Part shown: piece by piece, positions 11,199-28,810 of the stretch
How positions within the stretch are numbered: position 1 is the stretch's first letter
How the letters are laid out: the number at the start of each line of letters is the position of its first letter
Source of the DNA: an uncultured Eubacteriales bacterium
Lineage (GTDB): Bacteria; Bacillota_I; Bacilli_A; RFN20; UBA1709
DNA length: 64,000 bases
NCBI GenBank assembly: GCA_964367815.1
Contig: CAYIYR010000002.1
Location: 13,903-77,902, forward strand
Reading direction: 5' to 3'
The notes under the pieces: generated by a model
Told to the model about the DNA's origin: nothing
Seen by the model: the letters and a program-made list of their open reading frames with translations, nothing else
Database searches by the model: none
Made by a program: the position numbers and the translations under genes

Positions 11199-12368
11199 AT
11201 GAAAGAAATTTGGAAATACAAAATATTAACATTAGTTCGTTATTTTGGCGATGCACTATATTATCCGTTTTTATCTCTATATCTAGTAAGTACTGGACTG
11301 ACCACGGCATCCATTGGTTTTGTTTTGTCTATCACACCCATAATCGGTATTATCGTTAATCCTTTATATACCATGATTTGTAAGAATGTAAAGATTACGA
11401 GAAAAGTATTGGGTATAATCACCGTTGTTGAAGCCTTATTAATTATTTCTTTGACTTTTACAACTAATCTTTATCTAATATCCATAATAGTTGGACTAAT
11501 TGCCATCTTTGGCACTTCTCATTATGGATTAATGGATTCGTTAACAGCTGTTTTTGCGAATGAATCACATACAAGTTATACTTCATATCGGATGTTTGGT
11601 TCTATTGCATATATTATTGCTACCACTTTAGGCGGAATTATTATTGATAAAAGTAGTTATCAGATTTGTTTTATGATTGGTGCCAGCCTTTTCATTATCT
11701 CGGGACTACTGTATCGTTGGCTTAAACCCATTGAAATTGAGAATGTTGAAGAAGTTGGAAAAGAAAAAGTTAAATTCAAAGATCTATTAAAAAATAAGAC
11801 TTATATATTCTTCTTGATTTTCCATGTTTTATTTATGGGTGCCATGAATAGCACTGAGAACTTTTTCGCTGTTTATTTGGAAAGCCGGGGAGTGGGAGCC
11901 GATCAATACGGCTTGATCTATTCATATTTTGTTGTTTTTGAAGTAATTACCTTATTAATTCTAAATAAATTTTTCAAGAGAGCAAATTACCAAGTCCTAC
12001 ATTTAATTGCTGCCGGATTAATGCTGATGCGCTATATAATTAACTTCTTAGATCTTCCCGTCGGGCTAGTAATTGCGGTGGCCGGTGCTAGAGGGATTGC
12101 TTTCGCTATGATTCTTTTTATTACTTATCAATATATTGTCAAAATAGTGGGGGAAAGAAATTCTATTACTGCGGTTATGTTTTTGACTTTAGTTACCTCT
12201 ATTTATACTGCGATATTTAACAATATCTATGGAAATATTATCGATAATAGTGGTTATCAAGTTTTTTACCTAATCAGTGCGATTATCTTCGCTGCTGTAG
12301 TAATCCTTGCGGTGTTTAGATTAGTATACTATAAAAGAAAGGCGCATAAAGAAACAGAGAACAAATAA
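11199..12368 (+). CDS. MFS transporter
   Basis: About 12 TM helices with an MFS-like layout. The start was taken at MKEIWKYK, after a GGTGGGAAC SD. Confidence 0.65.
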   Translation: MKEIWKYKILTLVRYFGDALYYPFLSLYLVSTGLTTASIGFVLSITPIIGIIVNPLYTMICKNVKITRKVLGIITVVEALLIISLTFTTNLYLISIIVGLIAIFGTSHYGLMDSLTAVFANESHTSYTSYRMFGSIAYIIATTLGGIIIDKSSYQICFMIGASLFIISGLLYRWLKPIEIENVEEVGKEKVKFKDLLKNKTYIFFLIFHVLFMGAMNSTENFFAVYLESRGVGADQYGLIYSYFVVFEVITLLILNKFFKRANYQVLHLIAAGLMLMRYIINFLDLPVGLVIAVAGARGIAFAMILFITYQYIVKIVGERNSITAVMFLTLVTSIYTAIFNNIYGNIIDNSGYQVFYLISAIIFAAVVILAVFRLVYYKRKAHKETENK

Positions 12369-12421
12369 TTATTGTTATATTGGTAAATAGGCATAAATAT
12401 GCTAAAATAAAGAGCTGACAA

Positions 12422-12497
12422 CGGGGCGTAGCACAGTTGGTAGTGCGCTTGGTTCGGGACCAAGAGGTCGCGGGTTCGATTCCCACTGCTCCGACCA
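12422..12497 (+). tRNA. tRNA-Pro (anticodon CGG)
   Basis: 76-nt cloverleaf read by hand. Acceptor CGGGGCG/TGCTCCG, D-arm GCAC/GTGC, anticodon stem CTTGG/CCAAG with loop TTCGGGA, T-loop TTCGATT, and a 3' CCA. Confidence 0.8.
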
Positions 12498-12706
12498 ACT
12501 TAATTAAGATTTCCTCCATGATTTTGCCTTTTGGTAAAACTAGATGGGGGATTTTTTCTTTTTAATTGCCAACAAAATAATAAGTTGGGATAGACCATCC
12601 ATTCCCTTTTGTTTTTAGAAATGATATACTGATGCCAAATACATTCGAATAAAAATCCCAAATATTATGTATATTGAATTACAAAGAAAGATGGAGGAAA
12701 CAGAAA

Positions 12707-16471: not shown

Positions 16472-16480
16472 TTCAAAAAA

Positions 16481-16506
16481 GGCGTTCAAACAGCGCCTTT
16501 TTTATT
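16481..16506 (+). terminator. Rho-independent terminator
   Basis: GGCGT-tcaaaca-GCGCC followed by TTTTTTATTTTT. Confidence 0.75.
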
Positions 16507-16553
16507 TTTGTCATAAAACTCAGTAGCGATATATATTGTATATATATCACTTC

Positions 16554-16582: not shown

Positions 16583-16608
16583 GCCTTTATAAAAAAGAGG
16601 TTAATTTT

Positions 16609-18834
16609 GTGATATATATATTGCTCGGATTATCCGTTATCATCTCTGCGATAGTAATTTATTTATGTTTGTTTTGTAAAAAAATTCGTTTCCCTAAAAA
16701 GGTGAAACTTTCAATTGATGATGATAAAGATAACAAATTCTATGTTGTGATGCGTATCCTTTGTTGGATATTAATCGCAGCAGTCGCTGTTAGATTAGTG
16801 AATAACGATGTCATTGCTGCAATGGTAAAAAGAGACATCCTTTTTTCCACGTCTATGGCGACCATTGTTATAGTTATTCGCGCATTAACTATGGGTGCAG
16901 TTTTAGCTTGTGCGGTTGTCTCTTACTTTAATTATCGTAGCTTTCGGAATATCGTTGCGTTTTTTGTTCCGATTATCTACATTGTAAATATTCTATTTTT
17001 TACCCAAAATATCCAAGCGATGTTGGGAATTGTTAAGGTTCCAACGTATAATTATCGCGAGATTGTTTTTGCGATTGAATGCGTTTTAGGAGTAGTGATT
17101 GGGCTTTCTTTCTTGGTTAAGAAAATCAAAGATCGTGATTTCTCTAAGATGTATTTACAACTTCCAATCGCTCTATTTACCTTGATAGGCTTTTCCCTCG
17201 CCAATATGCATCCTTGCAGTATTGAGAATATGTGGGGAACTGATTGGTGTGGAGCCTCAACTAATTTCAATCGGATGCATATCTATATAATTATTGGAAT
17301 GCTGATTGTTACCGTCTTATTAATAGCCTTATTTAAGAAGTTGAAAAACGATGACATGACACACTGTTTCCTTTGCATCTGCTCGGTTTGTTGTGCCATG
17401 GTCTTTACTGCTAATCGCGACTATGCTAACTTTAAATTTTGGAATTTGCCCTTACATCTTTGTAATACGGGTGTCTTCTTGATGCTTTTTAGTTTTACTT
17501 GTCGTAATAAACCCATTTTCTATTTTAATTATTTAGTTAATGTGGTTGGAACTCTGTTTGCAATTATCTTGCCAGATTATGGGGCGGCCTTATTCTCAGA
17601 TCCAGGAATTCACTATTGGCATAACCACCTTTTGTTATTTATTCTACCATTGGTAGCGGTTGGTGCTGGCTATTATGAAAGACCGAAACTGAAGTATATT
17701 TATTATTCAATGGTTGTCTTTACAATCTATTTTCTTTTAGTTTGTTTTATTAATGCCTGGTTTAAGAATTTTGAACCAGGAGTAAACTACTTCTATTTAA
17801 ATGGCGATACTATTGTTAATCGATTTGTCTGGGCGCCGCATCTAAAAAATGATTTTATTTTTGTTTTCAAGATTCAGAATTGCACTTTCGAAATCTATTG
17901 GTTGTATTGGCTATTAACCTATGTCATTTATATTGGTTTTATTTTTGTCGCTTGGTTTGGCTTTGTCGCTTTATATAAGGTTAGTGATGGATATACAGAC
18001 TTGATTGTCCGCAATCACAAAATAGGTGAGGAACATAGTCATCTAATGCATGAGATGAAAGGGCGAAAACTTTCGGAGCCTCTGCATCCTGAGGACAAAG
18101 ATATGATAAAAATCAGCCATTTTACGAAGGTTTATAATGGTAGTAGCAATAAATCAGTTGATGATTTCTCTTTGCAGATACACGGTGGGGAAGTCTATGG
18201 TTTCCTCGGCCACAATGGTGCGGGAAAATCAACAACAATTAAATCTTTAGTGGGAATTCAAACAATTACTTCTGGAACCATGGAAGTATGTGGTTTTGAT
18301 GTTGAACGCCAACCTCTACAAGCGAAAAGAGTCATTGGCTATGTTTCAGATAATCATACTGTCTATGAAAACTTGACCGGCCGTGAGTATATCAATTATG
18401 TCGCTGATTTGTATTTGGTAGCACAAGCTGAAAGAGATGAGAGAATAACTAAATATGTGAAGATGTTCAACTTGGAAGATGCCATCGATCGAGAAATAAA
18501 GGGCTATTCCCATGGAATGAAGCAGAAAATTGTTGTCATAGCTTCATTGATTCATAATCCCAAAATTTGGATTCTTGATGAGCCACTTACCGGCTTAGAT
18601 CCTTCTAGTAGTTTCCAGATAAAATCAGTAATGAAAGAATATGCCAACAATGGCAACATTGTCTTTTTCAGCAGCCATGTTATCGAGGTTGTTGAGAAAA
18701 TCTGTGACAAGATCTGCATTATCAATCATGGTAAACTTGTGGGCGAATGGGCATTAAAAGATCTTTCGGCCCATGGGGAAACACTTCAAGATTTATATAT
18801 GAAGTATGTTTCGATAAATAAGGAGGATAACTAG
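16609..18834 (+). CDS. Fusion protein: N-terminal polytopic membrane domain (about 480 aa, LPLHLC motif, possibly YwaF/TMEM164-like) fused to a C-terminal ABC-2-type ATP-binding domain.
   Basis: GTG start after AAGAGG. At least 10 predicted TM segments. Walker A GHNGAGKST, signature variant YSHGMKQK, Walker B ILDEPLTGLDP. Confidence 0.7.
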   Translation: MIYILLGLSVIISAIVIYLCLFCKKIRFPKKVKLSIDDDKDNKFYVVMRILCWILIAAVAVRLVNNDVIAAMVKRDILFSTSMATIVIVIRALTMGAVLACAVVSYFNYRSFRNIVAFFVPIIYIVNILFFTQNIQAMLGIVKVPTYNYREIVFAIECVLGVVIGLSFLVKKIKDRDFSKMYLQLPIALFTLIGFSLANMHPCSIENMWGTDWCGASTNFNRMHIYIIIGMLIVTVLLIALFKKLKNDDMTHCFLCICSVCCAMVFTANRDYANFKFWNLPLHLCNTGVFLMLFSFTCRNKPIFYFNYLVNVVGTLFAIILPDYGAALFSDPGIHYWHNHLLLFILPLVAVGAGYYERPKLKYIYYSMVVFTIYFLLVCFINAWFKNFEPGVNYFYLNGDTIVNRFVWAPHLKNDFIFVFKIQNCTFEIYWLYWLLTYVIYIGFIFVAWFGFVALYKVSDGYTDLIVRNHKIGEEHSHLMHEMKGRKLSEPLHPEDKDMIKISHFTKVYNGSSNKSVDDFSLQIHGGEVYGFLGHNGAGKSTTIKSLVGIQTITSGTMEVCGFDVERQPLQAKRVIGYVSDNHTVYENLTGREYINYVADLYLVAQAERDERITKYVKMFNLEDAIDREIKGYSHGMKQKIVVIASLIHNPKIWILDEPLTGLDPSSSFQIKSVMKEYANNGNIVFFSSHVIEVVEKICDKICIINHGKLVGEWALKDLSAHGETLQDLYMKYVSINKEDN

Positions 18835-18835
18835 T

Positions 18836-20437
18836 ATGTTTGAAAGAATTAACACATTAGTCAAACTCCAGCTTGGTCATCGCTACCGGATCAAAAAGAG
18901 TGGCGATCAAATATGGAAATTAATCTTTAAAATTGCGGGTTTCTTCATCGTAGGAGCTGCCGCTTATTTAGTTATGTTTGCGATCAAGAAATTCGTTTAT
19001 CTAACAATTACGAATTCAATGATTCTTTTCATTATTTTCTTCACGCAGGTTTTAACTCTTTTAGCGAATGCCGCTTCCTTAACTAAATCTCTTTATGGTA
19101 GTAAAGATAATGCGATTCTTCTTTCTTTACCAGCTCATAATAGTGAAATCTATATTTCCAAATTAATCGTCTTTTATCTACTAGAACTCTATGGTAATGC
19201 GATGTTTCTCTTACCAATTCTAGCGGGTTATGGACTATTTTCTGGGCAGGGTTTATGGTATTATTTTGCTGCTGTTATTATTACCTTTTTATTACCAATA
19301 GTGTCCGTTCTTGCGGGAGCTTTACTATCCATACCGCTATCTTATGTTGCGAAATTGTTTAGAAAGTTTTCCATCTTATATGGTATATTTACATTAGGAA
19401 TTGTCGGCTTGGTCTTCTATTTTGTAACTAAACTAGTAGCTCTAATTCCTGTTCCGTTCCGCTTAGTTGCACTTTATAACTCATTGATGAACAAAATACT
19501 AGTGCTTGTTGAAACCGCTAATAGTTATGCTCTGTTCTACAAGTGGTTTTCTAATTTCCTTTTCAACATTCATGCGGGAATGAATATTGTCTTTATAATT
19601 CTATTAATTATCGGTTTAATTATTGCTAATATGTTATTGTCACAACCGTTATTCTTTAAGCTATCTAGTCATAGTGCGGAAGATGCAGTTCAAAAGAAGC
19701 ATAAAGGAATCAATAAAAAATCAAAGAGCACGTTCTTGGCCTTCTATAAAAAAGAGGTCATTATCTCCATTCGCTGTTTTGGCAAAGTATTAGAAAACTA
19801 TCTAATGATTATCTGCATGCCGATTATTCTCTATCTTATTAACAGTATATTTTTAGCACTGAATTTAAGCACGTTTGGTCAAACGCTTATTTTTGGAATT
19901 AATATTCTAATCGGACTAATGATGATGATTGCTAGCAACACCGCTAGTTCAATGTCACTGAGTGAAGAAGGCAGCGAGTTTGTGCTGCTGAAAACCTCAC
20001 CCGCAAATACGCAAAAAATAGCATGGGCTAAGATCGCTAACAACATTCTTATCTCCACGTTTTTACTGATTGTTTCTTTATTTATTCTAGCTTTTATGAA
20101 AGTGATGCCAATTAGATCGGTTGTAGTTTTAGGCATTATCTTCTTCTTGGTAAATTGCGGACATATTATGTGGTCCTTCCAATTGGATTTAAGGAATCCG
20201 CAGATTAAAGATGTGGCATTAACAGGAACAGTTAGTAATCAAGTTAATGTTACGAGTTGCTTGACAATCGGAACACTCATCTCTGTTGTTTTTGGTGCTT
20301 TAGCGGTCCTGCTTTCTTTTGGACTGGGCAGTGCGGCCTATTTACAAATGATAGATTTAGCAGTTTTATTTGTGGTTTGGAGATTCATTGTTTTCCGAAT
20401 CAACTTAAAAGTCTATTTCTATGATATAGAGTTATAG
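18836..20437 (+). CDS. Large polytopic membrane protein, the putative permease partner of the upstream ABC ATPase.
   Basis: Its ATG lies 2 nt after the upstream stop, indicating coupling. 533 aa with about 12 hydrophobic segments. Confidence 0.55.
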   Translation: MFERINTLVKLQLGHRYRIKKSGDQIWKLIFKIAGFFIVGAAAYLVMFAIKKFVYLTITNSMILFIIFFTQVLTLLANAASLTKSLYGSKDNAILLSLPAHNSEIYISKLIVFYLLELYGNAMFLLPILAGYGLFSGQGLWYYFAAVIITFLLPIVSVLAGALLSIPLSYVAKLFRKFSILYGIFTLGIVGLVFYFVTKLVALIPVPFRLVALYNSLMNKILVLVETANSYALFYKWFSNFLFNIHAGMNIVFIILLIIGLIIANMLLSQPLFFKLSSHSAEDAVQKKHKGINKKSKSTFLAFYKKEVIISIRCFGKVLENYLMIICMPIILYLINSIFLALNLSTFGQTLIFGINILIGLMMMIASNTASSMSLSEEGSEFVLLKTSPANTQKIAWAKIANNILISTFLLIVSLFILAFMKVMPIRSVVVLGIIFFLVNCGHIMWSFQLDLRNPQIKDVALTGTVSNQVNVTSCLTIGTLISVVFGALAVLLSFGLGSAAYLQMIDLAVLFVVWRFIVFRINLKVYFYDIEL

Positions 20438-20448
20438 GAGGAGAAGGT

Positions 20449-20931
20449 ATGAATAGAAAAACTATTATCTTATTAATTATTGCCTTCTCAATCATCTTTG
20501 TAGCGTTGGTTGGCTTCTATGGGGTGAAACCCTTCAATGATAATCCAGTTCAAGCGACTTATATTAAGTGGCAGAATGAAGAATTATCCATTGATGACAA
20601 CGGCAAGGTTTATTATTATTTACCCTGTGTCGAAGAGAATGAAACAAAGAGAGTTTATTTAGCAAACTTTGTAGTTTTGGACTCAGCAGCAACGCTGGGA
20701 AAAGAAACTTTGAAGTATTCGATTATCTACGATAAAGAGGAAGAAAAAGGTCGCTTAGAATTAACCGAAACCGGAACTTTTGCGGGTTGGTTAACCATCA
20801 AAGGTCAAACTACGGCGACAATTACTGTGTCCACTACAGATGGTAGTGGCATCGATGCCCGTTTATTTATTCGAAACAAGACAGCTTGTGTGATTCCGGG
20901 TGAAGTAATCGGTGGCGATATATTTAAATAG
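20449..20931 (+). CDS. Small membrane-anchored extracytoplasmic protein (N-terminal TM anchor plus a beta-rich domain).
   Basis: SD AGGAGGAG. N-terminal LLIIAFSIIFVALVGF, followed by about 130 hydrophilic residues. Confidence 0.5.
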   Translation: MNRKTIILLIIAFSIIFVALVGFYGVKPFNDNPVQATYIKWQNEELSIDDNGKVYYYLPCVEENETKRVYLANFVVLDSAATLGKETLKYSIIYDKEEEKGRLELTETGTFAGWLTIKGQTTATITVSTTDGSGIDARLFIRNKTACVIPGEVIGGDIFK

Positions 20932-20990: not shown

Positions 20991-23900
20991 ATGAAAAAAC
21001 CATTTAAGAAAATAGCGTTTTTTCTGAGCATTTTGTTTCTATGCTTAGGGGTAGGCACATTAACATCATGTAATGAACAAGCAGCTGTCAAAGTTAAGTT
21101 CTATGACTCTTTGACGACTACCGAAACAACAGAAAAATTGTTATTTCCTGGATCTTATGATCTAGCGAAACTGGCTTCTGAAGGTCTTGATGACTTTGTT
21201 CCAGAAAAGAAGGGATATACCTTCGTAAAATGGACACTTGATAAAAGTGGGACAAGCGACTTTGATCCCAAAAAATATACAAGTGGAACAGAAACCGTCG
21301 TGAATGTCTATGCCCAATGGGAGGAGAGAGCAAAGATTGCTTACTATAACGGTAGCAATCCCATTGGAACCTATTATTTTGATGAACTAAAGACTGGCAC
21401 CCAAACAGTTGCGGCGCCCACAAGGACTGGATACACCTTTGTGAGATGGACAACTGATTCGGCCAATACAACAGAATTTGTTGCTTCAACCTTTAGTTAT
21501 CCAACTGATAAGAAAACCGTTAATGTCTACGCTCAATGGGAGAAAGTAGTTACCATTATTTATATGAATGGCAACACCGAAGCAGGAAGAGTATTATTAT
21601 CAGCTCTAAAAGAGGGTACTTCTACTGCACCAACAGTTACAAAAGTTGGTTTCAATTTTGATAAGTGGACAACTGATACTGAAGGGACAACCACATTTAA
21701 TCCCGCAACTTTAGTTACTGATAAAGATACAATAACTGTTTATGCGAAATTTAATGCGAAAGCCAAAGTGACTTATTATGATGCCTCGGTAGTTCTTTAT
21801 GATTATTATCTTGAAGACATCACCACATCGACTCCCCAACCAACCCCAACAAAAGTCGGCTATACATTTGTCGGCTGGGTCGATGGCAATAATGCCGCTT
21901 TTACAGTCAATTTAAGTGCAACTGCTAACCAAGTAGCTTATGCAAAGTGGGAGCAGAGAGCTCTAGTTAATTTCTATAATGGTTCAACAAAAGTTGAAAC
22001 CAAGTATTTAGATGAACTTAAAGCCGGAACAACCACACAACCAGTTGTTACCAAAACGGGTTATTCCTTCCTCGAATGGAATCTATCCGAGAATGGTGCG
22101 GGCGTAACCTTTAATCCAAATACTTATAATGGAAGTTCCAAAACTATTAATGTTTATGCTCAGTGGGAAAGAGTAGTAACTGTTATCTATATGAATGGTT
22201 CTACCGAAGTCGGAAGAGTTCTGCTATCTGCCTTAAAAGATGGCACATTACCAGCACCAACCGCTACCAAGGCTCACTATACGTTCAAGAACTGGACAAC
22301 TGATAGTGCGGGAACAACGCCATTTGTGGTAGCTAATTGCCCAATGACAAACGCCACATTCACTGTCTATGCTCAATGGACTGAGAATGTCAAAGTCATC
22401 TATATGAGCGATAATTCCATCTATCAAACTTATTATTTAGATGAATTATCAGCTGGATTTACTAATCCTGTCATTAATAAAACTGGATATACCTTTGTCA
22501 AATGGGAAAACAGTGAGAATGAAGAATTTGTTTTAAATCGTGAAGCGACTGTTAACCAGATTGCTTACGCCAAATGGGAACAAAGAGCGGTTGTTAAATA
22601 TTATGATGGCAACACTCTTGTTGAAACGAAGTATCTCGATGAATTGAAAGCGGGAACAACCACTCAACCATCAGTCACGAAGACTGGTTATACCTTTGTT
22701 GAATGGAATACTTCATCCGATGGAGAAGGAAATACCTTTAATTATGTGGCCTATGCCGGAACAGAAAAGACCATCAATGTTTATGCTAAATGGGATTTAA
22801 TTGTTACAGTTGTCTATATGAATGGTGCAAGTGAAGTCAATAGAATTCTTCTCTCAGCTTTGAGAAGCGGAACTTCTGAACCAGTAGTTACTAAGACCGG
22901 TTATTACTTCAGTGCTTGGACAACTGATCTTGAAGGTAACACTCCATTCGTTTATGGAAGTTATTTTGCTAGTACTGCCACAGTTACTGTCTATGCTCAA
23001 TGGACAGAAAAATTAGTTGTTACTTACTACAATGGTAATGATGTTTATGATACCAAATATCTAGAGGATATTACCAATTCTTATGTTCCAGCCGAGCCTA
23101 CTAAAACGGGTTATGACTTCCAAGGATGGGTTACCACTGATGATGGTTCAACAAGTTTTGTTCTTGACGTCGCTGCTTCAAGCAACATTAATGCTTACGC
23201 CAAATGGGAACAAAAAGTAACTGTTAGATATTATGATGGCGAAACCCTAGTTGCTTCTAGATATTTAGATGAACTAAAAGCAGATATTACTTCTGCTCCA
23301 GCTGCTCCATCTAAGACTGGTTATACCTTTATAAGATGGACTGTCAATGGCGAAACATTCAATTATGATACATATGTCAGTGCTGTAAAGACAGTTAATG
23401 TTAATACTGAATATGAGTTAATTGTTACAGTAATCTATATGAATGGTTCAAGTGAAACAGGTAGAGTTCTATTATCAGCTTTGAAAGCTGGGACTTCAAC
23501 TGCTCCAACTGCGACCAAACAACATTATACCTTCCAAGGATGGAAGACTGATGTTCTAGGGACAATTCCATTTGTCGTTTCTAACTGTCCAATGGACAAT
23601 GAAACAGTTACTGTTTATGCAAGTTGGACAGAAAATTCCAAGGTAACATACTATGTAGGCAATGAATTGTACGATAGTAAATATCTAGATGAAATTGCCA
23701 ATAGTTATGTTCCAACAACACCAACTGCTTCTGGTAAGTTCTTCAATACTTGGGTAACTACCGCTGAAGGTAGCACCGCCTTTGTTTTGGACTGTGCTTC
23801 TACAACAGACTTAGTTGCTTATGCAACTTGGTACAATGAGCCAGAAATTACTGGACTTAACTACGATGCTGCTAATGGCCGAATTGAATGGAATGCTTTG

Positions 23901-26522
23901 ATCGATGCGACTTATCAGATTAAGATTGATGCTGGTGAACCAGTTTCAACTGTTACAGTCGAAGGTGGAAAAGTTCATTACTCCTTAGATTCAAGTTTGG
24001 ACATTGGACAGCATACCGCGTATGTAATGATCACTTATCACGGACATAGCACAGTTTGGACAAGTTTATCATTCACAAAGCAGATTGTTTTATCAATTGG
24101 TACACCAAGTTTTAATGCGGAAACTCGTGTAATATCTTGGGATGAGCCTGCTGGTGATGGTTATTATTATGATGTTTATTGGAATGGCATTGTTGGTGTT
24201 ACTCCAGTAAGAGTCAATACTAATAGTTATACTATTCCAGCAAGCATCGTTACTGGTTCTTATGTTATCTATGTAAAGGCTTATAAAGAAGTCAATTCTG
24301 TTATTATTAGTTCTAATACTGATAGTGCTTCAGTAACAGTAGTTTCAGTTGAAAGATACGATGAAACATTAAAATTATTTATTAATGCCGATGATAGATA
24401 TGTTCTCATGACCGGTGTCGATTACACATTTGCTACAGTATCTTCCATTACTGAAAACACCGAATATTTCACTGTTACAGGTAACAAAATCACGATTAAG
24501 AACAATCTTGCCAATGGTACAATATTTGATGTAGTAACTAACTTGGGAACCATTCATGCTTGTGCAGAAAATGTTATCTTGAGCATATCACCAGATGATA
24601 ATTGGACCACTTATCAAAACAACGCGAAATTAAGCAATGTTAATAGTAATTCAAATCAAACTGGTTTTATGAATATTACTAATTTATATGAAGTTGGTAC
24701 AGGAGATGACAATTATCGCTTAGAGTTGAATATCACTAGTAGTAGTGCATTCGCCGCAACTTGTTTCCCTCTAGATGTTAGCGGAACAGTTGGTTTAAGC
24801 AGTAATATTGGTTACTATTTATCACTGAAGAAGGTTGGAGAATACTACTGCATTGATTGGACAGAGCATGCTTCTGAATTAGCAGATGGAACGGTTGTTT
24901 CATTAACTATTAAGGCACATTATGTAACTGGTGCACAGAAGGAAATACCTTTCTATACTTACACATTTAAAGTAAACAAAGGTGTTAACGTTTATACTGA
25001 TGCTGAATTAAGAGAAAATTTCAGTGATTTAGATGTTAAGTCAATTAATCTTCATAGCAATATTATCTTGAGTCAAGCCGAGTTAACAGAGCTAGGAATA
25101 GTCTACAGTAATCATACTGATACCACTGTAGAGAATCCGAAAAACAGTATTGAAAATAGTATTTATTTCCGTTCTTCCGCTGTGGATGATGATTTCAGAC
25201 TTAATGGAAACTATTTCCAAATTGATGCTTCAAACGTTAATAAACTAATTGGTAAAGCTAATTCTACTTTTGGCACCTACAAGATGTATTATGTGTTTGT
25301 TGCTGTCTTAGGAATTCAAGGTGGCGGAAGTGATTCAGTCAATTATGAAGAATTAGGTGGCGCCGTAACTGTGAGTAAAAAGCAGAATGCCTCTATAACA
25401 AATATTAAAGTAAAAGGTAATGCAACGCTTACTACAACTGAGGGTTCATTCTTAACCGATTCAGGGGCAATTGATGGCTTTATTAGCCAAACCTATGCAA
25501 CAACCTTAGATAACGTTGTAATCTACAATTGTAATGAAGGAATCAAGCTCGAATCACAAAATAATGGGACTCACTTTATCAGAAACAATCTACATATTGT
25601 AAAGAATACTGCAATTAGCCAATGTTGGAATAGTAGTACTTACTTATTTACAGATGGCGAAATCAGATTTGAAGATAGCCATTTCTATAAGTCATATAGC
25701 ACATCTTCAACTCTAGCTATGTCAGAGTCTAGCAATAGAAATATTGTTTTCACTGATGTTGATAATGGCATTTATGCAAGAGCATATCCATGCATCACAT
25801 TAGATAATATGATTTTTGATAACTGGGCATATGGTGATGAATTCTACTATCAAGCTGTCGGGTTTAGCTCATCATTAACAAGTTATAAGCAACAAATGGA
25901 TACCAATGTTAAAGCACTGACACAAGATGGCTATACCTTAGTCCGTACTAATCAAGATTCAACAACTCAAATCAATATGGAACTTATGATTAATGGTAAG
26001 AATGATAGTATGTACGAAATAAGATATGTCAAAGCTGATGGAACAGTTTATAGTTCATTGAGATCTTGTAAGCAAGTTGGCGATATAGACTGTCCAAATG
26101 ATCCTAGAGCCGGAGCTGACCCATATACTGTTTTATGGCCAGTAGGATCAACAAGTAGTTCAGAAAACTTTGGTGCATTAGCGACACAACTTACTAATGA
26201 ACTCACCGCTTTAGGTGCTCAATTATCAGGCAATTCTGAATATGCTACCGCTTATACTAATATGGAAGGTAAATTCTTGCTGGATTCCGTGTTTGGTGAT
26301 AATTTGATGACTTATGCACTAACTTTATTAGGACAAACTGGTGATGAAACAGCAACAAGTAACTTACGTACATCTACTCTTTACCAATACGCATTTGCTC
26401 AAGCATACAATGATGCTAACAGTGGCAGAATCCACATGGAAGCAACCTTGCCAAATGCCGGTCTTGGAAATGGTAATGATGGTATTTCAACAATACTTGT
26501 TGAAGCCATTAAAGCATCTTAA
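20991..26522 (+). CDS. Giant cell-surface lipoprotein of 1843 aa. It has 13 tandem Listeria-Bacteroides (Flg_new)-type repeats, two FN3-like modules and a C-terminal beta-helix-like region.
   Basis: Signal peptide with the lipobox LTSC. Repeats of about 72-88 aa end in the pattern KTGYTF..W......F.........V(Y)A.WE. The segment NIKVKGNATL...VVIYNCNEGIKL...IRNNLHIVKNTAIS is reminiscent of parallel beta-helix repeats. Confidence 0.8.
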   Translation: MKKPFKKIAFFLSILFLCLGVGTLTSCNEQAAVKVKFYDSLTTTETTEKLLFPGSYDLAKLASEGLDDFVPEKKGYTFVKWTLDKSGTSDFDPKKYTSGTETVVNVYAQWEERAKIAYYNGSNPIGTYYFDELKTGTQTVAAPTRTGYTFVRWTTDSANTTEFVASTFSYPTDKKTVNVYAQWEKVVTIIYMNGNTEAGRVLLSALKEGTSTAPTVTKVGFNFDKWTTDTEGTTTFNPATLVTDKDTITVYAKFNAKAKVTYYDASVVLYDYYLEDITTSTPQPTPTKVGYTFVGWVDGNNAAFTVNLSATANQVAYAKWEQRALVNFYNGSTKVETKYLDELKAGTTTQPVVTKTGYSFLEWNLSENGAGVTFNPNTYNGSSKTINVYAQWERVVTVIYMNGSTEVGRVLLSALKDGTLPAPTATKAHYTFKNWTTDSAGTTPFVVANCPMTNATFTVYAQWTENVKVIYMSDNSIYQTYYLDELSAGFTNPVINKTGYTFVKWENSENEEFVLNREATVNQIAYAKWEQRAVVKYYDGNTLVETKYLDELKAGTTTQPSVTKTGYTFVEWNTSSDGEGNTFNYVAYAGTEKTINVYAKWDLIVTVVYMNGASEVNRILLSALRSGTSEPVVTKTGYYFSAWTTDLEGNTPFVYGSYFASTATVTVYAQWTEKLVVTYYNGNDVYDTKYLEDITNSYVPAEPTKTGYDFQGWVTTDDGSTSFVLDVAASSNINAYAKWEQKVTVRYYDGETLVASRYLDELKADITSAPAAPSKTGYTFIRWTVNGETFNYDTYVSAVKTVNVNTEYELIVTVIYMNGSSETGRVLLSALKAGTSTAPTATKQHYTFQGWKTDVLGTIPFVVSNCPMDNETVTVYASWTENSKVTYYVGNELYDSKYLDEIANSYVPTTPTASGKFFNTWVTTAEGSTAFVLDCASTTDLVAYATWYNEPEITGLNYDAANGRIEWNALIDATYQIKIDAGEPVSTVTVEGGKVHYSLDSSLDIGQHTAYVMITYHGHSTVWTSLSFTKQIVLSIGTPSFNAETRVISWDEPAGDGYYYDVYWNGIVGVTPVRVNTNSYTIPASIVTGSYVIYVKAYKEVNSVIISSNTDSASVTVVSVERYDETLKLFINADDRYVLMTGVDYTFATVSSITENTEYFTVTGNKITIKNNLANGTIFDVVTNLGTIHACAENVILSISPDDNWTTYQNNAKLSNVNSNSNQTGFMNITNLYEVGTGDDNYRLELNITSSSAFAATCFPLDVSGTVGLSSNIGYYLSLKKVGEYYCIDWTEHASELADGTVVSLTIKAHYVTGAQKEIPFYTYTFKVNKGVNVYTDAELRENFSDLDVKSINLHSNIILSQAELTELGIVYSNHTDTTVENPKNSIENSIYFRSSAVDDDFRLNGNYFQIDASNVNKLIGKANSTFGTYKMYYVFVAVLGIQGGGSDSVNYEELGGAVTVSKKQNASITNIKVKGNATLTTTEGSFLTDSGAIDGFISQTYATTLDNVVIYNCNEGIKLESQNNGTHFIRNNLHIVKNTAISQCWNSSTYLFTDGEIRFEDSHFYKSYSTSSTLAMSESSNRNIVFTDVDNGIYARAYPCITLDNMIFDNWAYGDEFYYQAVGFSSSLTSYKQQMDTNVKALTQDGYTLVRTNQDSTTQINMELMINGKNDSMYEIRYVKADGTVYSSLRSCKQVGDIDCPNDPRAGADPYTVLWPVGSTSSSENFGALATQLTNELTALGAQLSGNSEYATAYTNMEGKFLLDSVFGDNLMTYALTLLGQTGDETATSNLRTSTLYQYAFAQAYNDANSGRIHMEATLPNAGLGNGNDGISTILVEAIKAS
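21072..23850 (+). repeat. Coding tandem repeat array: 13 Flg_new-like units with a higher-order 3-4-unit periodicity.
   Basis: Units R5 and R8 are near-identical at the protein level (AKWEQRA.V..Y.G.T.VETKYLDELKAGTTTQP.VTKTGY.F.EWN) but only about 75% identical at the DNA level. Confidence 0.8.
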
Positions 26523-26546
26523 GATTAGAAATTCTATTTAAAAAGG

Positions 26547-26578
26547 GGTACTGTTAATAACAGTGCCTCTTTTCTTTG
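26547..26578 (+). terminator. Rho-independent terminator of the operon
   Basis: GGTACTGTT-aat-AACAGTGCC followed by TCTTTTCTTT. Confidence 0.7.
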
Positions 26579-27054: not shown

Positions 27055-28011
27055 GTGGATGTAGTGAAAAGAAAAGTTGGATTAGTATTAGGTGGTGGCG
27101 GAGCAAAAGGTGCCTATCAGATTGGTGTCTATAAAGCGCTACGTGAATATAAGCAGATAGAACAAATCGTGGCTTTCTCTGGAACGTCAATAGGGGCTCT
27201 TAATTTGGTTTTGTTATCTTCTAAGGAAATTGATAAGGCTGAGCGAATTTGGTTAAATTTGAGCCGAAAAAACATCTTAACGTTGAAAAACTGGAAAGAA
27301 TATTTATCTTTCAAGAATTTTAGTGTTCTCTCAAGAAGGGGAATGTTAGAAATCTTTAGTAGTGATATAGATTTTGATAAAGTCTCTAAATGTGAATATC
27401 CATTATATGTTGGCGCGACAAATACAATTGAAGACTGTGGAGAGATATTTAAGTTGAATGGAATGGAATCTAATAAGATTATTGATTGTCTTTCAGCTTC
27501 AAGTGCAATCCCAAAGATATTCGCACAAGTATTTATTAATGGCAAAAAGTATTGTGATGGCTTTCGTTATTTAAATGTTCCCATTCAATGCCTCATTGAA
27601 GAGAAGTGTAACTTCCTATTCACCATTCCCTTAAGTCCTTATCTAGCACCTAAAGATGGTGATTTCCCAGACACCACGATTATCGACTTTAATGAGAAGA
27701 TTTTCGCTAATCTCAAAACTTGGGAAGGGACACTTGGTTTTGATGCCAAGATAGTTGAGGAGAGAATGAATCTTGGTTATAAGAATGCCATGAAATTATT
27801 GGAATTCTTAAGAAAAGAAGGAGTCATTACTGTCACCTTCAAGGATAAAGTCCGTTATTTCTTCGGCAAGATCACTGGTCGGAACAAGAAATTCAAAAAG
27901 TACTATTCTATGGAAGACGTGAATATAATTAAGGAACTACCAAAACCTAATGATGAGGTAGAACAAACCATAGAAGAGGGATCGACCACAGATGGGACAA
28001 AGACTAGTTGA
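27055..28011 (+). CDS. Patatin-like phospholipase
   Basis: GGGGAKG oxyanion motif and GTSIG nucleophile elbow. GTG start. Confidence 0.8.
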   Translation: MDVVKRKVGLVLGGGGAKGAYQIGVYKALREYKQIEQIVAFSGTSIGALNLVLLSSKEIDKAERIWLNLSRKNILTLKNWKEYLSFKNFSVLSRRGMLEIFSSDIDFDKVSKCEYPLYVGATNTIEDCGEIFKLNGMESNKIIDCLSASSAIPKIFAQVFINGKKYCDGFRYLNVPIQCLIEEKCNFLFTIPLSPYLAPKDGDFPDTTIIDFNEKIFANLKTWEGTLGFDAKIVEERMNLGYKNAMKLLEFLRKEGVITVTFKDKVRYFFGKITGRNKKFKKYYSMEDVNIIKELPKPNDEVEQTIEEGSTTDGTKTS

Positions 28012-28810
28012 GTTATTGAAGTATCTTTTGTTAGGCTTTGTGCAGGGCGCTTGTGAGATATTACCTATCTCATCAAGTGGGCATTTAATAATTTTCCAAT
28101 ATATTATGGGGAGGGAAGAAGTAAATCTTGCCTTCTCTGTTTTTTTGCATTTTGGTAGTTTGATAGCGGTATCCATTTTTCTACGCAAGCGAATAGTTGA
28201 ATTGTTAAGTGGAACGTATAAATATCTTATAAAGAAAGATCGGAATTATTATAATCAGGCTCATTATTGCTTGCTACTTGTTTTATCAACAATTGTTACT
28301 GGAATAATTGGTCTAGTATTTGAGGATAAAGTTCAACAGATAAGTACATTAGGCTTTGTGGGATGCGCACTAATTATTAATGGAATATGTTTGTTAATTG
28401 TTAATCGTATAAGTAACAAAGCAACTAAAACTATCAACAATATGCCTTGGTGGAAAGCCGTATTGATTGGACTGGGTCAAGGGGTCGGAATACTTCCTGG
28501 TATTTCTCGTAGTGGAGCGACACTTGGAACATCAATTGCGGTTGGAGTCAAAAAAGAAGTCGCTGCTGAGTATGCATTTCTTCTTTTTATTCCCGTAGAA
28601 TTTGGAGCATTAATCATCAGCATTGATGATTTAATGACAACTGAAAAGTCTCTGATTATCCCATATATTTTAGGAATGGTAATCGCCGCAATTACTACAT
28701 ACTTTGCGCTCGTTTTATTTTTGGGAGTAATTAAAAAGAAGAAGATTAATTACTTCTCCTTTTACTCGTTAATTGTTGGTGTTATTTGCACTCTGGTTTA
28801 TTTTTTTTAA
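27992..28810 (+). CDS. uppP: Undecaprenyl-diphosphatase
   Basis: EILPISSSGHL and GISRSGAT motifs typical of BacA/UppP. Confidence 0.9.
   Translation: MGQRLVELLKYLLLGFVQGACEILPISSSGHLIIFQYIMGREEVNLAFSVFLHFGSLIAVSIFLRKRIVELLSGTYKYLIKKDRNYYNQAHYCLLLVLSTIVTGIIGLVFEDKVQQISTLGFVGCALIINGICLLIVNRISNKATKTINNMPWWKAVLIGLGQGVGILPGISRSGATLGTSIAVGVKKEVAAEYAFLLFIPVEFGALIISIDDLMTTEKSLIIPYILGMVIAAITTYFALVLFLGVIKKKKINYFSFYSLIVGVICTLVYFF

Follow-up and report, generated by a model that had tools for sequence, protein, structure and literature searches.

A TMEM164/YwaF-type membrane module fused to an ABC ATPase heads a conserved four-gene operon in largely uncultured Bacillota

We describe a family of bacterial proteins, carried by at least 355 species genomes, in which a polytopic membrane module with a TMEM164/YwaF-type core is fused to an ABC ATPase. 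The fusion gene heads an operon that continues with genes for a 12-TM type V permease, a small anchored Ig-like protein and a lipoprotein of 700-1900 aa; this genomic context, the conserved four-gene operon, is the new part of the finding. We favour, tentatively, the reading that the fusion protein supplies the ATPase of a type V (ABC-2) transporter and that its 13-helix N-terminal module would include an outward-facing Cys-His acyltransferase, the whole acting as a lipid or lipoprotein machine.

The operon in the window and in other genomes

The window is the whole 64,000-nucleotide stretch of DNA that was analysed. The cassette and its signals occupy the following positions:

16475..16503, + strand: intrinsic-terminator-like hairpin (12-pair stem, then T-run) closing the upstream ychF unit
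16508..16537, + strand: promoter-like site TTGTCA-18-TATATT 5′ of the operon (10/12 consensus; a consensus match only)
16595..16600, + strand: ribosome-binding site AAGAGG, 8 nt 5′ of the GTG, read directly from the sequence
16609..18834, + strand: fusion gene, 741 aa, 13-TM membrane module and ABC ATPase
18836..20437, + strand: 12-TM permease, 533 aa, both halves of a type V ABC exporter fold in a single chain
20449..20931, + strand: small bitopic protein, 160 aa, anchored by an N-terminal TM helix, with an Ig-like (Big_2-like) ectodomain
20991..26522, + strand: giant surface lipoprotein, 1843 aa, signal peptide and lipobox LTSC (Cys27)
26541..26573, + strand: strong terminator-like hairpin (15-pair stem and T-run) closing the four-gene unit

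GTG is the start codon of the fusion gene, whose stop codon is followed by the permease start after 2 nt. The closing hairpin lies 19 nt past the lipoprotein stop codon, and the four genes sit between two strong terminator-like hairpins.

The preliminary description of this DNA had reported an ABC ATPase fused to a polytopic membrane domain; the open reading frame and its Pfam matches (PF14808 and PF00005) confirm this. It had also suggested surveying whether the fusion recurs. The two-domain architecture is common to 40 of 41 database relatives of aa 1-490, at 25-50% identity, and is therefore not a product of chance. We fetched 80 species loci. Both domains are in one ORF at 79 of these, the remaining locus being split, and the fusion heads the four-gene operon wherever the contig allows. 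Of the downstream genes, that for the permease was present at 75 loci, that for the small protein at 67 (and at more on inspection) and that for the large protein at 57; these counts are limited mainly by contig ends. Split variants retain the same gene order, and the synteny is strict over at least two classes of Bacillota.

Two apparent exceptions were artefacts. At locus L087, an ‘ATPase without membrane domain’ is explained by an assembly gap of Ns, and a ‘standalone’ 371-aa protein (P0041/L085) is a frameshifted fusion with its profile split over two ORFs. The window's flanking genes for a patatin-like phospholipase, glyoxalase, YchF, Csp and MntP were rejected as partners, since they recur in no other locus; a BacA flanking gene recurs in two loci.

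The hosts are almost all uncultured Clostridia, Acholeplasmataceae, Izemoplasmatales and Bacilli. Acholeplasmataceae and Izemoplasmatales are wall-less, which favours a role centred on the membrane or cell surface over one in the cell wall.

The fusion protein

Within the fusion gene we distinguish these parts:

16609..17253, + strand: N-terminal six-helix module, aa 1-215, subfamily-specific (AlphaFold2 helices)
17254..17973, + strand: TMEM164/YwaF-type (ATGY superfamily) acyltransferase core, aa 216-455, seven helices
17449..17463, + strand: helix 9, outer end: P281-L-H283-L-C285 motif, with Cys285 as candidate nucleophile for an acyl-thioester
17626..17628, + strand: codon of His340, candidate general base, equivalent of human TMEM164 His181 by alignment
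17974..18096, + strand: cytoplasmic continuation of the long helix 431-482, tether between module and ATPase (AlphaFold2 model)
18097..18834, + strand: ABC-2/DrrA-like nucleotide-binding domain, aa 497-741 and stop codon (PF00005)

The AlphaFold2 model (pLDDT 89.7, pTM 0.85) has 13 membrane helices ahead of the ATPase, in keeping with the ten or more first proposed. The motifs quoted at that stage were all located in the 741-aa protein: LPLHLC at 280-285, GHNGAGKST at 534-542, YSHGMKQK at 633-640 and ILDEPLTGLDP at 655-665; the two membrane segments WNLPLHLCNTGVFLMLF and CFLCICSVCCAMVF are at 278-294 and 253-266.

A resemblance of the membrane half to YwaF/TMEM164 (TIGR02206) had been suspected, and HMM searches bear it out. 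Helices 7-13 are the part that matches Pfam TMEM164 (PF14808; 67.1 bits over aa 221-404, gathering score 25 bits, E 2e-18, profile positions 3-190 of 217), a domain present in 41/41 database relatives. In NCBIfam, aa 1-490 match TIGR02206 alone, a family now called ‘TMEM164-related integral membrane acyltransferase’, and human TMEM164 is the only PDB match of the family profile. Since the TIGR02206 score of 56.5 bits falls below the NCBI cut-off of 75 bits, the membrane domain is, by this measure, a distinct subfamily and not canonical YwaF. Linkage of a YwaF-type family to ABC ATPases, previously suggested, is systematic in the fusion subfamily. The domain is also not an ABC-2 permease, in line with the earlier view that it does not look like a canonical ABC exporter domain; the permease is the separate downstream gene. 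A phospholipase A2, the sole PDB match in a single-sequence search of aa 1-490, was a chance match.

The N-terminal module (helices 2-22, 42-62, 81-104, 110-139, 149-175 and 181-198) has no Pfam or NCBIfam match; G140 and E157 are near-invariant in it. That it is an internal duplicate of the TMEM164-like core is ruled out by an hhalign probability of 2%. The core has the conserved six-TM fold of the ATGY superfamily, which takes in AIG1, TMEM164, GPC1, YwaF and YpjA, and the DUF1405 (LhaT/YpjA) model gave no match at E<=1 in a Pfam scan of the fusion protein.

The preliminary description read a conserved His-Cys pair in LPLHLC as a sign of a catalytic membrane domain. The P281-L-H283-L-C285 motif is indeed invariant among the 40 closest relatives. 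Among motif-unbiased representatives P281 (133/133), C285 (128/132), G314 (134/138) and H340 (130/135) are kept, and position 283 is His in 84 and Gln in 40, Gln making up about 30% of the wider family. Of the pair, His283 is the less conserved. The catalytic reading is supported in a refined form, the partner of Cys285 being His340 on another helix, not His283 on the same one; Cys285 and His340 are about 97% conserved over fused, split and standalone relatives. The Cys-rich helix 253-266, which had been cited as part of the resemblance to YwaF, is a feature of this sequence alone: not one of its cysteines is conserved, and it has no bearing on the reading.

Human TMEM164 (PDB 9lw1/9lw3), of the same Pfam family, is a CoA-independent phospholipid:lyso-ether-phospholipid transacylase whose C123 is acylated as a thioester and whose function depends on H181 (10.1101/2022.07.06.498872, PMC12830759). 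Its catalytic pocket as given in the cryo-EM paper includes P122, H124, G155, Y177 and H181, and not P163 or P188 (PMC12830759). Profile alignment sets P281, H283, G314, P322, Y336, H340 and P347 opposite human P122, H124, G155, P163, Y177, H181 and P188, with the motif region against human P122-C123-H124-L125-V126. The two proteins, at only 12% identity, have in common P-x-H-L, G155/G314, Y177/Y336, H181/H340 and a conserved Cys on the nucleophile helix. The human nucleophile C123 is aligned opposite Leu282, with Cys285 three residues later on the same helix, and human Glu106 has no counterpart; because of the offset, Cys285 can be called only a possible structural equivalent of C123. The fusion further differs from the human protein in its six extra N-terminal helices, its C-terminal ABC ATPase, its bacterial origin and its predicted outward-facing site.

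ATGY enzymes have an invariant His on core helix 4, which is H340 here by its alignment to H181, and a Cys, Ser or Thr opposite it on core helix 2; C285 is on that helix, at the three-residue offset. These matches to the superfamily's Cys/His dyad support Cys285 and His340 as a candidate catalytic pair. Together with the less conserved His224 and His283 they could instead form a structural metal site. Short standalone relatives of the YwaF/TP0381 (TIGR02206) type (~230-260 aa), at the weak end of our exhaustive search, keep the Cys and the His; canonical members are standalone proteins of ~220 aa, without the fusion's N-terminal module and ATPase.

Since the ATPase must be cytoplasmic and the predicted cytoplasmic loops are K/R-rich (six of six, from the sequence and the AlphaFold2 helices), the Cys285/His340 site is predicted to lie at the outer face of the membrane, and E157, H224, H283, C285 and H340 would fall in its outer half. 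The TMEM164 cryo-EM paper makes no statement on the membrane face onto which the pocket opens (PMC12830759).

The ATPase half matches ABC_tran (PF00005) at aa 518-660 (E 4e-26). Walker A (GxNGAGKST), YSHGMKQK, Walker B D657-E658 (LDEP) and H690 (SSH) are invariant in 39/39 relatives, as is Asp581 (GYV[PS]D), which by motif register takes the Q-loop Gln position. With every catalytic motif but the Q-loop Gln invariant, a pseudo-enzyme is ruled out, and the ATPase is, judged by its motifs, competent. Its best NCBIfam matches are the DrrA, GldA, lantibiotic-protection and PSM-export ATPases, all below the curated cut-offs (TIGR01188, DrrA, 207.6 against 312.45; TIGR03522, GldA, 185.9 against 402.6), which would make it ABC-2-type in general, with no named equivalog. 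Such matches, and the presence of PmtD and Rv1217c among the fold neighbours of the permease, are what an ordinary ABC-2 drug or peptide exporter would give, its membrane module a non-catalytic anchor or regulator and the neighbouring surface proteins unrelated in function. We consider this highly improbable: the Cys/His pair and pocket residues are near-invariant over 25-50% identity, the four-gene synteny crosses classes, small and large proteins can be fused to each other, and split and fused variants retain the gene order.

The permease and the surface proteins

By fold, the second gene's product belongs with the transmembrane domains of ABC-2, ABCA and ABCG transporters. A Pfam scan of the window permease gave no match at E<=1. 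Orthologous permeases match PF16949 (ABC_tran_2) or PF09847 (12TM_1), precomputed matches included, and full-length orthologues (26-52% identity) reach 52.3 and 36.7 bits with PF16949 against a gathering score of 25.7. The nearest folds include the lipid transporters ABCA4, ABCA3, ABCG1 and ABCG5, and polymer exporters score below transporters of lipids and hydrophobic cargo.

These neighbours are also compatible with bulk lipid remodelling or scavenging, in which the transporter would flip or import lipids, the fused transacylase would re-tailor them, and the lipoprotein would capture or present exogenous lipid as a partner and not a substrate. Many of the Mollicutes-related and uncultured Clostridia and Bacilli hosts have small genomes and depend on external lipids. 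CoA-independent phospholipid:lysophospholipid transacylation is, moreover, the family's only proven chemistry (10.1101/2022.07.06.498872, PMC12830759). We nevertheless judge this reading somewhat unlikely. No other lipid-metabolism gene was found conserved next to the cassette, the window's patatin-like gene being non-recurrent; signals in the lipoprotein core are weak and of a beta-helix or adhesin-like kind, and no lipid-binding domain could be recognised there; and the need for a 700-1900 aa surface protein in every operon is left unexplained.

The small protein has one TM helix (aa 5-23) and the consensus motif S/T-D-G-S. Big_2 matches occur in 2 of 10 orthologues, one of them over the gathering score. 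The lipoprotein begins with a signal peptide and lipobox, MKKPFKKIAFFLSILFLCLGVGTLTSC, typical of bacterial lipoproteins, with lipidation predicted at Cys27; some 53-55 of the 57 large proteins encoded at this place in the operon have both. At two loci, L005 and L073, large and small anchored proteins form a single chain that lacks a lipobox, so the lipobox Cys is not the obligatory acceptor everywhere; these loci would also fit lipid remodelling. About ten Listeria-Bacteroides (Flg_new) repeats (ten stretches in Pfam) lead to a conserved core:

24738..25940, + strand: conserved lipoprotein core, aa ~1250-1650, possible right-handed beta-helix

By BLAST, as many as 25 of the 56 cassette lipoproteins share this core. 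It has no PDB relative by sequence at E<=10 and 0 matches in a search of 5.8 billion proteins. Weak, sub-threshold matches to Pectate_lyase_5 (5/11 members) and Beta_helix (1/11) suggest that it is possibly a right-handed beta-helix.

NosD of the NosDFY system is an extracytoplasmic beta-helix that works with NosL. The hints of such a fold in the core, with an extracytoplasmic partner in every operon, recall this system, in which NosL is a lipoprotein (PMC8457098). By analogy nothing would be transported; ATP would drive a conformational change in a permease-docked, beta-helix-like lipoprotein, with the acyltransferase-like module an auxiliary or loading site. We find this rather unlikely. The NosY score of the permease barely exceeds those of ABCA4, ABCG5 and CcmB, so no specific relationship is shown; the beta-helix call is sub-threshold; neither nos nor copper genes, the NosL copper chaperone among them, were found in the neighbourhoods examined; and the strong conservation of Cys285 and His340 would go unexplained.

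Carbohydrate-associated repeats and beta-helix-like signals in the lipoprotein, with an active site predicted to face outward, would also suit export of a glycopolymer or glycolipid (as by Wzm/Wzt or TarGH), O-acylated outside the cytoplasm by the fused enzyme and bound or processed by the large protein. This is quite improbable, given the lower scores of polymer exporters and the cassette's presence in wall-less lineages; no conserved glycosyltransferase or polymer-synthesis gene adjoins it, the flanks differing in every locus examined.

A proposed acyl-transfer machine and related systems

Under the reading we favour, an acyltransferase coupled to a type V transporter, two fusion subunits would dock their ATPase domains beneath the pseudo-dimeric permease, setting two acyltransferase modules beside it in the bilayer. 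With His340 as general base, Cys285 would pick up an acyl chain, as a thioester, from a glycerolipid of the membrane and hand it to an acceptor in the outer leaflet; thioester chemistry of this kind has been demonstrated for human TMEM164. Powered by ATP hydrolysis, the permease would bring in or carry off the lipid partner, which could be the donor, the lyso-lipid left over from the transfer or the lipoprotein's lipid-anchored N-terminus. We infer the substrate entirely from the gene neighbourhood; as acceptor we favour the cognate surface lipoprotein complex, at its lipid anchor or N-terminus. The result would be a dedicated acyl-remodelling and handling machine, with a logic like that of Lnt and LolCDE or of Aat/Cex and built from unrelated parts.

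In Lnt, a Cys thioester moves an acyl chain from phospholipid to lipoprotein at the outer face, after which ATP-driven handling of the lipoprotein falls to LolCDE. In LplT-Aas, a flippase for lyso-lipids works together with an acyltransferase. Both were described in diderm bacteria, and their folds are unrelated to those of the cassette and their components not fused in this way. The Aat/Cex systems share the cassette's logic of acyltransferase, ABC transporter and lipidated surface protein, with no homology. AatD is an Lnt-type enzyme, and the Aat transporter is MacB-like with a TolC-like duct. In enteric pathogens the acyltransferase AatD, the ABC transporter AatPC and the cognate Aap/CexE are encoded together (PMC7943197, PMC7478709). 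These Gram-negative systems have separate components; the cassette has no Lnt-family AatD, MacB-type transporter or outer-membrane duct.

A precedent for a lipoprotein acceptor is LhaT (YpjA, DUF1405) of Bacillus subtilis, which acetylates lipoprotein N-termini outside the cell and for whose acetyl-polyprenylglycerol donor the flippase is unidentified (PMC12345273). Like the fusion, LhaT is an integral-membrane enzyme of the ATGY superfamily; it belongs to a different branch, is a standalone six-TM protein with that other donor, and has no link to an ABC transporter. Among type V transporters (NosFY, ABCA/ABCG, CcmAB, PmtCD, DrrAB), the fusion's ATPase is of the DrrA/GldA/NodI type, and the cassette stands apart in its single-chain 12-TM permease and its Q-loop Gln to Asp change. 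We know of no described type V member with its ATPase fused to an acyltransferase membrane module. The literature searched (YwaF, ATGY, Pfam and TIGRFAM accessions) held no study of the bacterial fusion or cassette, no characterised function for bacterial YwaF/TMEM164-type proteins and no ABC transporter with an integral-membrane enzyme on its ATPase subunit.

A more specific version, which we regard as unlikely but worth stating, is a self-contained pathway by which monoderm and wall-less Bacillota would acylate and handle lipoproteins. The outward-facing transacylase would add or exchange an acyl chain on the giant lipoprotein of its own operon, for example by N-acylation from a phospholipid donor, with the permease supplying the donor, removing the lyso-lipid or positioning the anchor. 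Lipoprotein N-acyltransferase activity has been reported in Acholeplasma-type Mollicutes, with no enzyme known for it. If this version were true, the fusion would be a candidate for that enzyme and the cassette a functional counterpart of Lnt and Lol, or of Aat, made from unrelated parts.

Bacterial TMEM164/YwaF-type proteins are widespread, and their characterised relatives are only human TMEM164 and the distant LhaT. The fusion family offers a first functional handle on them, an enzyme domain that shares a chain with an ABC motor and, in several hundred species, an operon with a permease and a surface lipoprotein, and a testable hypothesis, that acyl transfer in the outer leaflet may be coupled to ATP-driven handling of lipids or lipoproteins. 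Most of the hosts are uncultured gut Clostridia (Christensenellales-like groups) or belong to Mollicutes-related lineages, organisms about whose surface biology next to nothing is known, and the cassette lipoproteins are the kind of molecule that is sensed by host innate immunity (TLR2).

The fusion gene and the four-gene unit

The ATPase-membrane fusion is a real open reading frame with a ribosome-binding site, AAGAGG, 8 nt 5' of its start codon and, further 5', a hairpin resembling a terminator and a promoter-like site. It heads a four-gene unit on the forward strand of the window:

16609..18834, +, fusion ORF of 741 aa with a GTG start
18836..20437, +, permease, second cassette gene; 12 TM helices, two halves in one chain
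20449..20931, +, small anchored protein, third cassette gene
20991..26522, +, large lipoprotein (lipobox LTSC); contains ten Flg_new repeats, and aa ~1250-1650 form a conserved core
26541-26573, strong terminator-like hairpin that ends the unit

In Pfam, the fusion protein matches TMEM164 (PF14808) over aa 221-404 (67.1 bits; gathering score 25) and ABC_tran at aa 518-660 (E 4e-26). Searched alone, aa 1-490 matched TIGR02206 ('TMEM164-related integral membrane acyltransferase') and no other NCBIfam model; the score, 56.5 bits, is under the cut-off of 75. The likeness of the N-terminal half to the YwaF/TMEM164 family, proposed in a preliminary description, is thus upheld by PF14808, with the TIGR02206 match remaining under its cut-off; all the motifs quoted in that description were found where it had placed them. 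The Cys-rich helix that it had counted in this likeness is not conserved. In NCBIfam the ATPase half comes closest to ATPases of the ABC-2 type (DrrA, GldA, NodI, lantibiotic-protection and PSM export), without attaining the curated cut-off of any. At the domain level the protein is placed in the PF14808 and ABC ATPase families, and by curated cut-offs outside TIGR02206, DrrA and GldA.

The Walker A, the YSHGMKQK signature, the Walker B and its catalytic Glu, the D-loop and the His of the H-loop do not vary across 39/39 sequences; the motor is under selection to hydrolyse ATP. In our register the Q-loop position, canonically Gln, is taken by an invariant Asp581 within the motif GYV[PS]D (39/39 homologues; window 18349-18351), the other catalytic motifs in these homologues all being canonical.

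Several neighbours in the window may be recorded here. A patatin-like phospholipase gene (27055..28011), ~500 nt 3' of the cassette, overlaps the start of a gene for BacA/UppP, the undecaprenyl-pyrophosphate phosphatase (27992..28810); at other loci the patatin gene does not recur and BacA is found in two. A DUF1538 membrane protein gene lies at 844-2382, and another ~2 kb 3' of the cassette at L003, a distant locus (16683-18017), possibly by coincidence. Upstream, 7492-10260 encodes a hybrid sensor kinase of 922 aa whose domains are PAS, HisKA, HATPase and a C-terminal receiver; after it come a 274-aa ORF that matched nothing in Pfam and two MFS transporters. A 67-aa ORF at 12316-12519 (-) overlaps the tRNA-Pro(CGG) gene at 12422-12497 (+) and is almost certainly spurious.

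The membrane module and its conserved residues

The AlphaFold2 model for aa 1-490 drew on 40 homologues and is confident (pLDDT 89.7, pTM 0.85). It contains 13 membrane helices, the last of which continues into the ATPase as one long helix (431-482). Residues 1-215 form six helices that matched no known family in Pfam or NCBIfam; that they duplicate the TMEM164-like core was ruled out. Among PDB sequences, the family profile matched TMEM164 and nothing else (E 0.25).

Topology was inferred by counting helices back from the ATPase, which must be cytoplasmic. The predicted cytoplasmic loops (aa 23-41, 105-113, 173-180, 243-249, 298-302 and 355-362) are all rich in Lys/Arg. E157, H224, H283, C285 and H340 are all predicted to lie within the membrane's outer half; the active site is therefore expected on the side of the outer leaflet. 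LhaT (YpjA), from another branch of the ATGY superfamily (AIG1/TMEM164/GPC1/YwaF/YpjA), acetylates lipoprotein N-termini in Bacillus subtilis, likewise on the outer side (PMC12345273). Helices 12 and 13 are linked by an extracytoplasmic loop of ~45 residues (aa 392-429; window 17782-17896), in which the motif V-[DN]-Y-F-F-L-N (F395, F396) is near-invariant and residues 418-429 are predicted to form a beta-hairpin; the loop may serve as a lid or docking element above the active site.

The family-profile alignment pairs the fusion with human TMEM164 as follows: P281=P122, H283=H124, G314=G155, A318=A159, P322=P163, Y336=Y177, H340=H181 and P347=P188. The cryo-EM paper on the human protein lists P122, H124, G155, Y177 and H181 as pocket residues and reports an acyl-thioester on C123 and an essential H181. 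Invariant positions among the 40 nearest homologues are H224, P281, H283, L284, C285, N311, G314, H340 and several others. A motif-unbiased set was assembled by searching 1.84 billion representatives exhaustively; the 176 clusters found at E<=1e-3 include fused, ~480-aa split and ~240-aa standalone forms. There, P281 is kept in 133/133, C285 in 128/132 and H340 in 130/135, position 283 is His in 84 and Gln in 40, and H224 and E157 are less conserved. By these counts the conserved pair is Cys285/His340. The hallmark of the ATGY superfamily is a nucleophile on core helix 2 combined with a His on core helix 4 that is invariant. In the sequence alignment human C123 stands opposite Leu282, and Cys285 comes three residues, about one helical turn, further on; the register is ambiguous here, the alternative being C285=C123 and N/H286=H124.

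Distribution and gene order of the operon

An ABC domain is present in 40/41 database relatives of the membrane half, and when one genome per species was scanned, at least 355 genomes contained a relative. Both domains lie in one ORF in 79/80 fetched loci. Two apparent exceptions to the fusion proved to be artefacts, one an assembly gap and the other a frameshift. The hosts are nearly all uncultured: Clostridia (including Christensenellales, Borkfalkia, Scatosoma and Caccovivens), Acholeplasmataceae, Izemoplasmatales and Bacilli MAGs. Three loci (L029, L036 and L040) come from bins named Parasutterella, Bacteroidales and Corallococcus; such names do not fit an otherwise Bacillota/Mollicutes distribution, so the contigs are probably mis-binned.

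The flanking genes vary from locus to locus. At every locus whose contig continues, the same three genes come after the fusion. The first encodes a permease of 530-580 aa, usually overlapping the fusion or a few bases away; the second a protein of 130-180 aa with a single TM helix at its N-terminus and an Ig-like ectodomain (Big_2 matches in 2/10 orthologues); and the third a protein of 684-1890 aa, begun in ~53-55/57 cases by a lipoprotein signal peptide and lipobox Cys. Variants on this plan reinforce the linkage of the genes. The split form at locus L021 leaves the gene order unchanged, and the exhaustive search found many ~480-aa membrane-only clusters; at L086 the large protein is upstream; and at L005 and L073 the small and large proteins are fused, with an N-terminal TM anchor in place of the lipobox (ORFs of 1022 and 1011 aa, 3' of the permease). 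Because of these fusions, the data suggest that the small and large proteins form a complex at other loci.

The split locus, with a 483-aa membrane protein and a separate 380-aa ATPase, is one of two copies that a single Acholeplasmataceae MAG carries on different contigs, the other being L083 (CAUTZD010000002.1 for L021 and CAUTZD010000003.1 for L083). A standalone YwaF-like gene of 243 aa lies ~3 kb 5' of the fusion gene at L014 (4981-5712).

The permease and a candidate function

The permease model (pLDDT 83.3) matches type V ABC transmembrane domains, with these scores: NosY 15.9, ABCA4 15.1, ABCG5 15.0, CcmB 14.6, Cdr1 14.6, ABCG2 14.1, ABCG1 13.4, ABCA3 13.2 and PmtD 12.2, with Wzm and LptF/G at ~10. 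By these matches the transport domain proper is the separate 12-TM permease; the membrane module that the ATPase carries is a putative added enzyme, not the channel. An ordinary exporter carrying an inert anchor is scarcely credible. A NosDFY-like mechanotransducer working on a beta-helix partner is improbable, the beta-helix evidence being sub-threshold only.

The unit holds an intact ABC motor fused to a membrane domain, a type V permease and an invariant pairing with two surface-anchored proteins. We rate the cassette as an ABC-2 transporter into which a predicted ATGY acyltransferase is built, accompanied by a constant set of surface partners. One permease would be flanked by two fusion subunits; at the outer leaflet, Cys285 and His340 would move an acyl group off a membrane lipid, and ATP-driven movements of the permease would supply or remove the lipid partner. 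As acyl acceptor our tentative choice is the cognate lipoprotein complex, at its anchor or N-terminus, because of the LhaT precedent and that of Aat/Cex, in which a dedicated acyltransferase, an ABC transporter and a cognate lipoprotein go together (PMC7943197); the wall-less lineages among the hosts also fit. The two loci lacking a lipobox count against an obligatory lipobox acceptor. Bulk remodelling or scavenging of lipid is a rather unlikely role for the cassette, and glycopolymer export with O-acylation a very improbable one.

The searchable literature yielded no account of the fusion, of bacterial YwaF function or of the cassette, nor any description of such an ABC architecture. With the cassette, a bacterial enzyme family hitherto unstudied gains a testable function.
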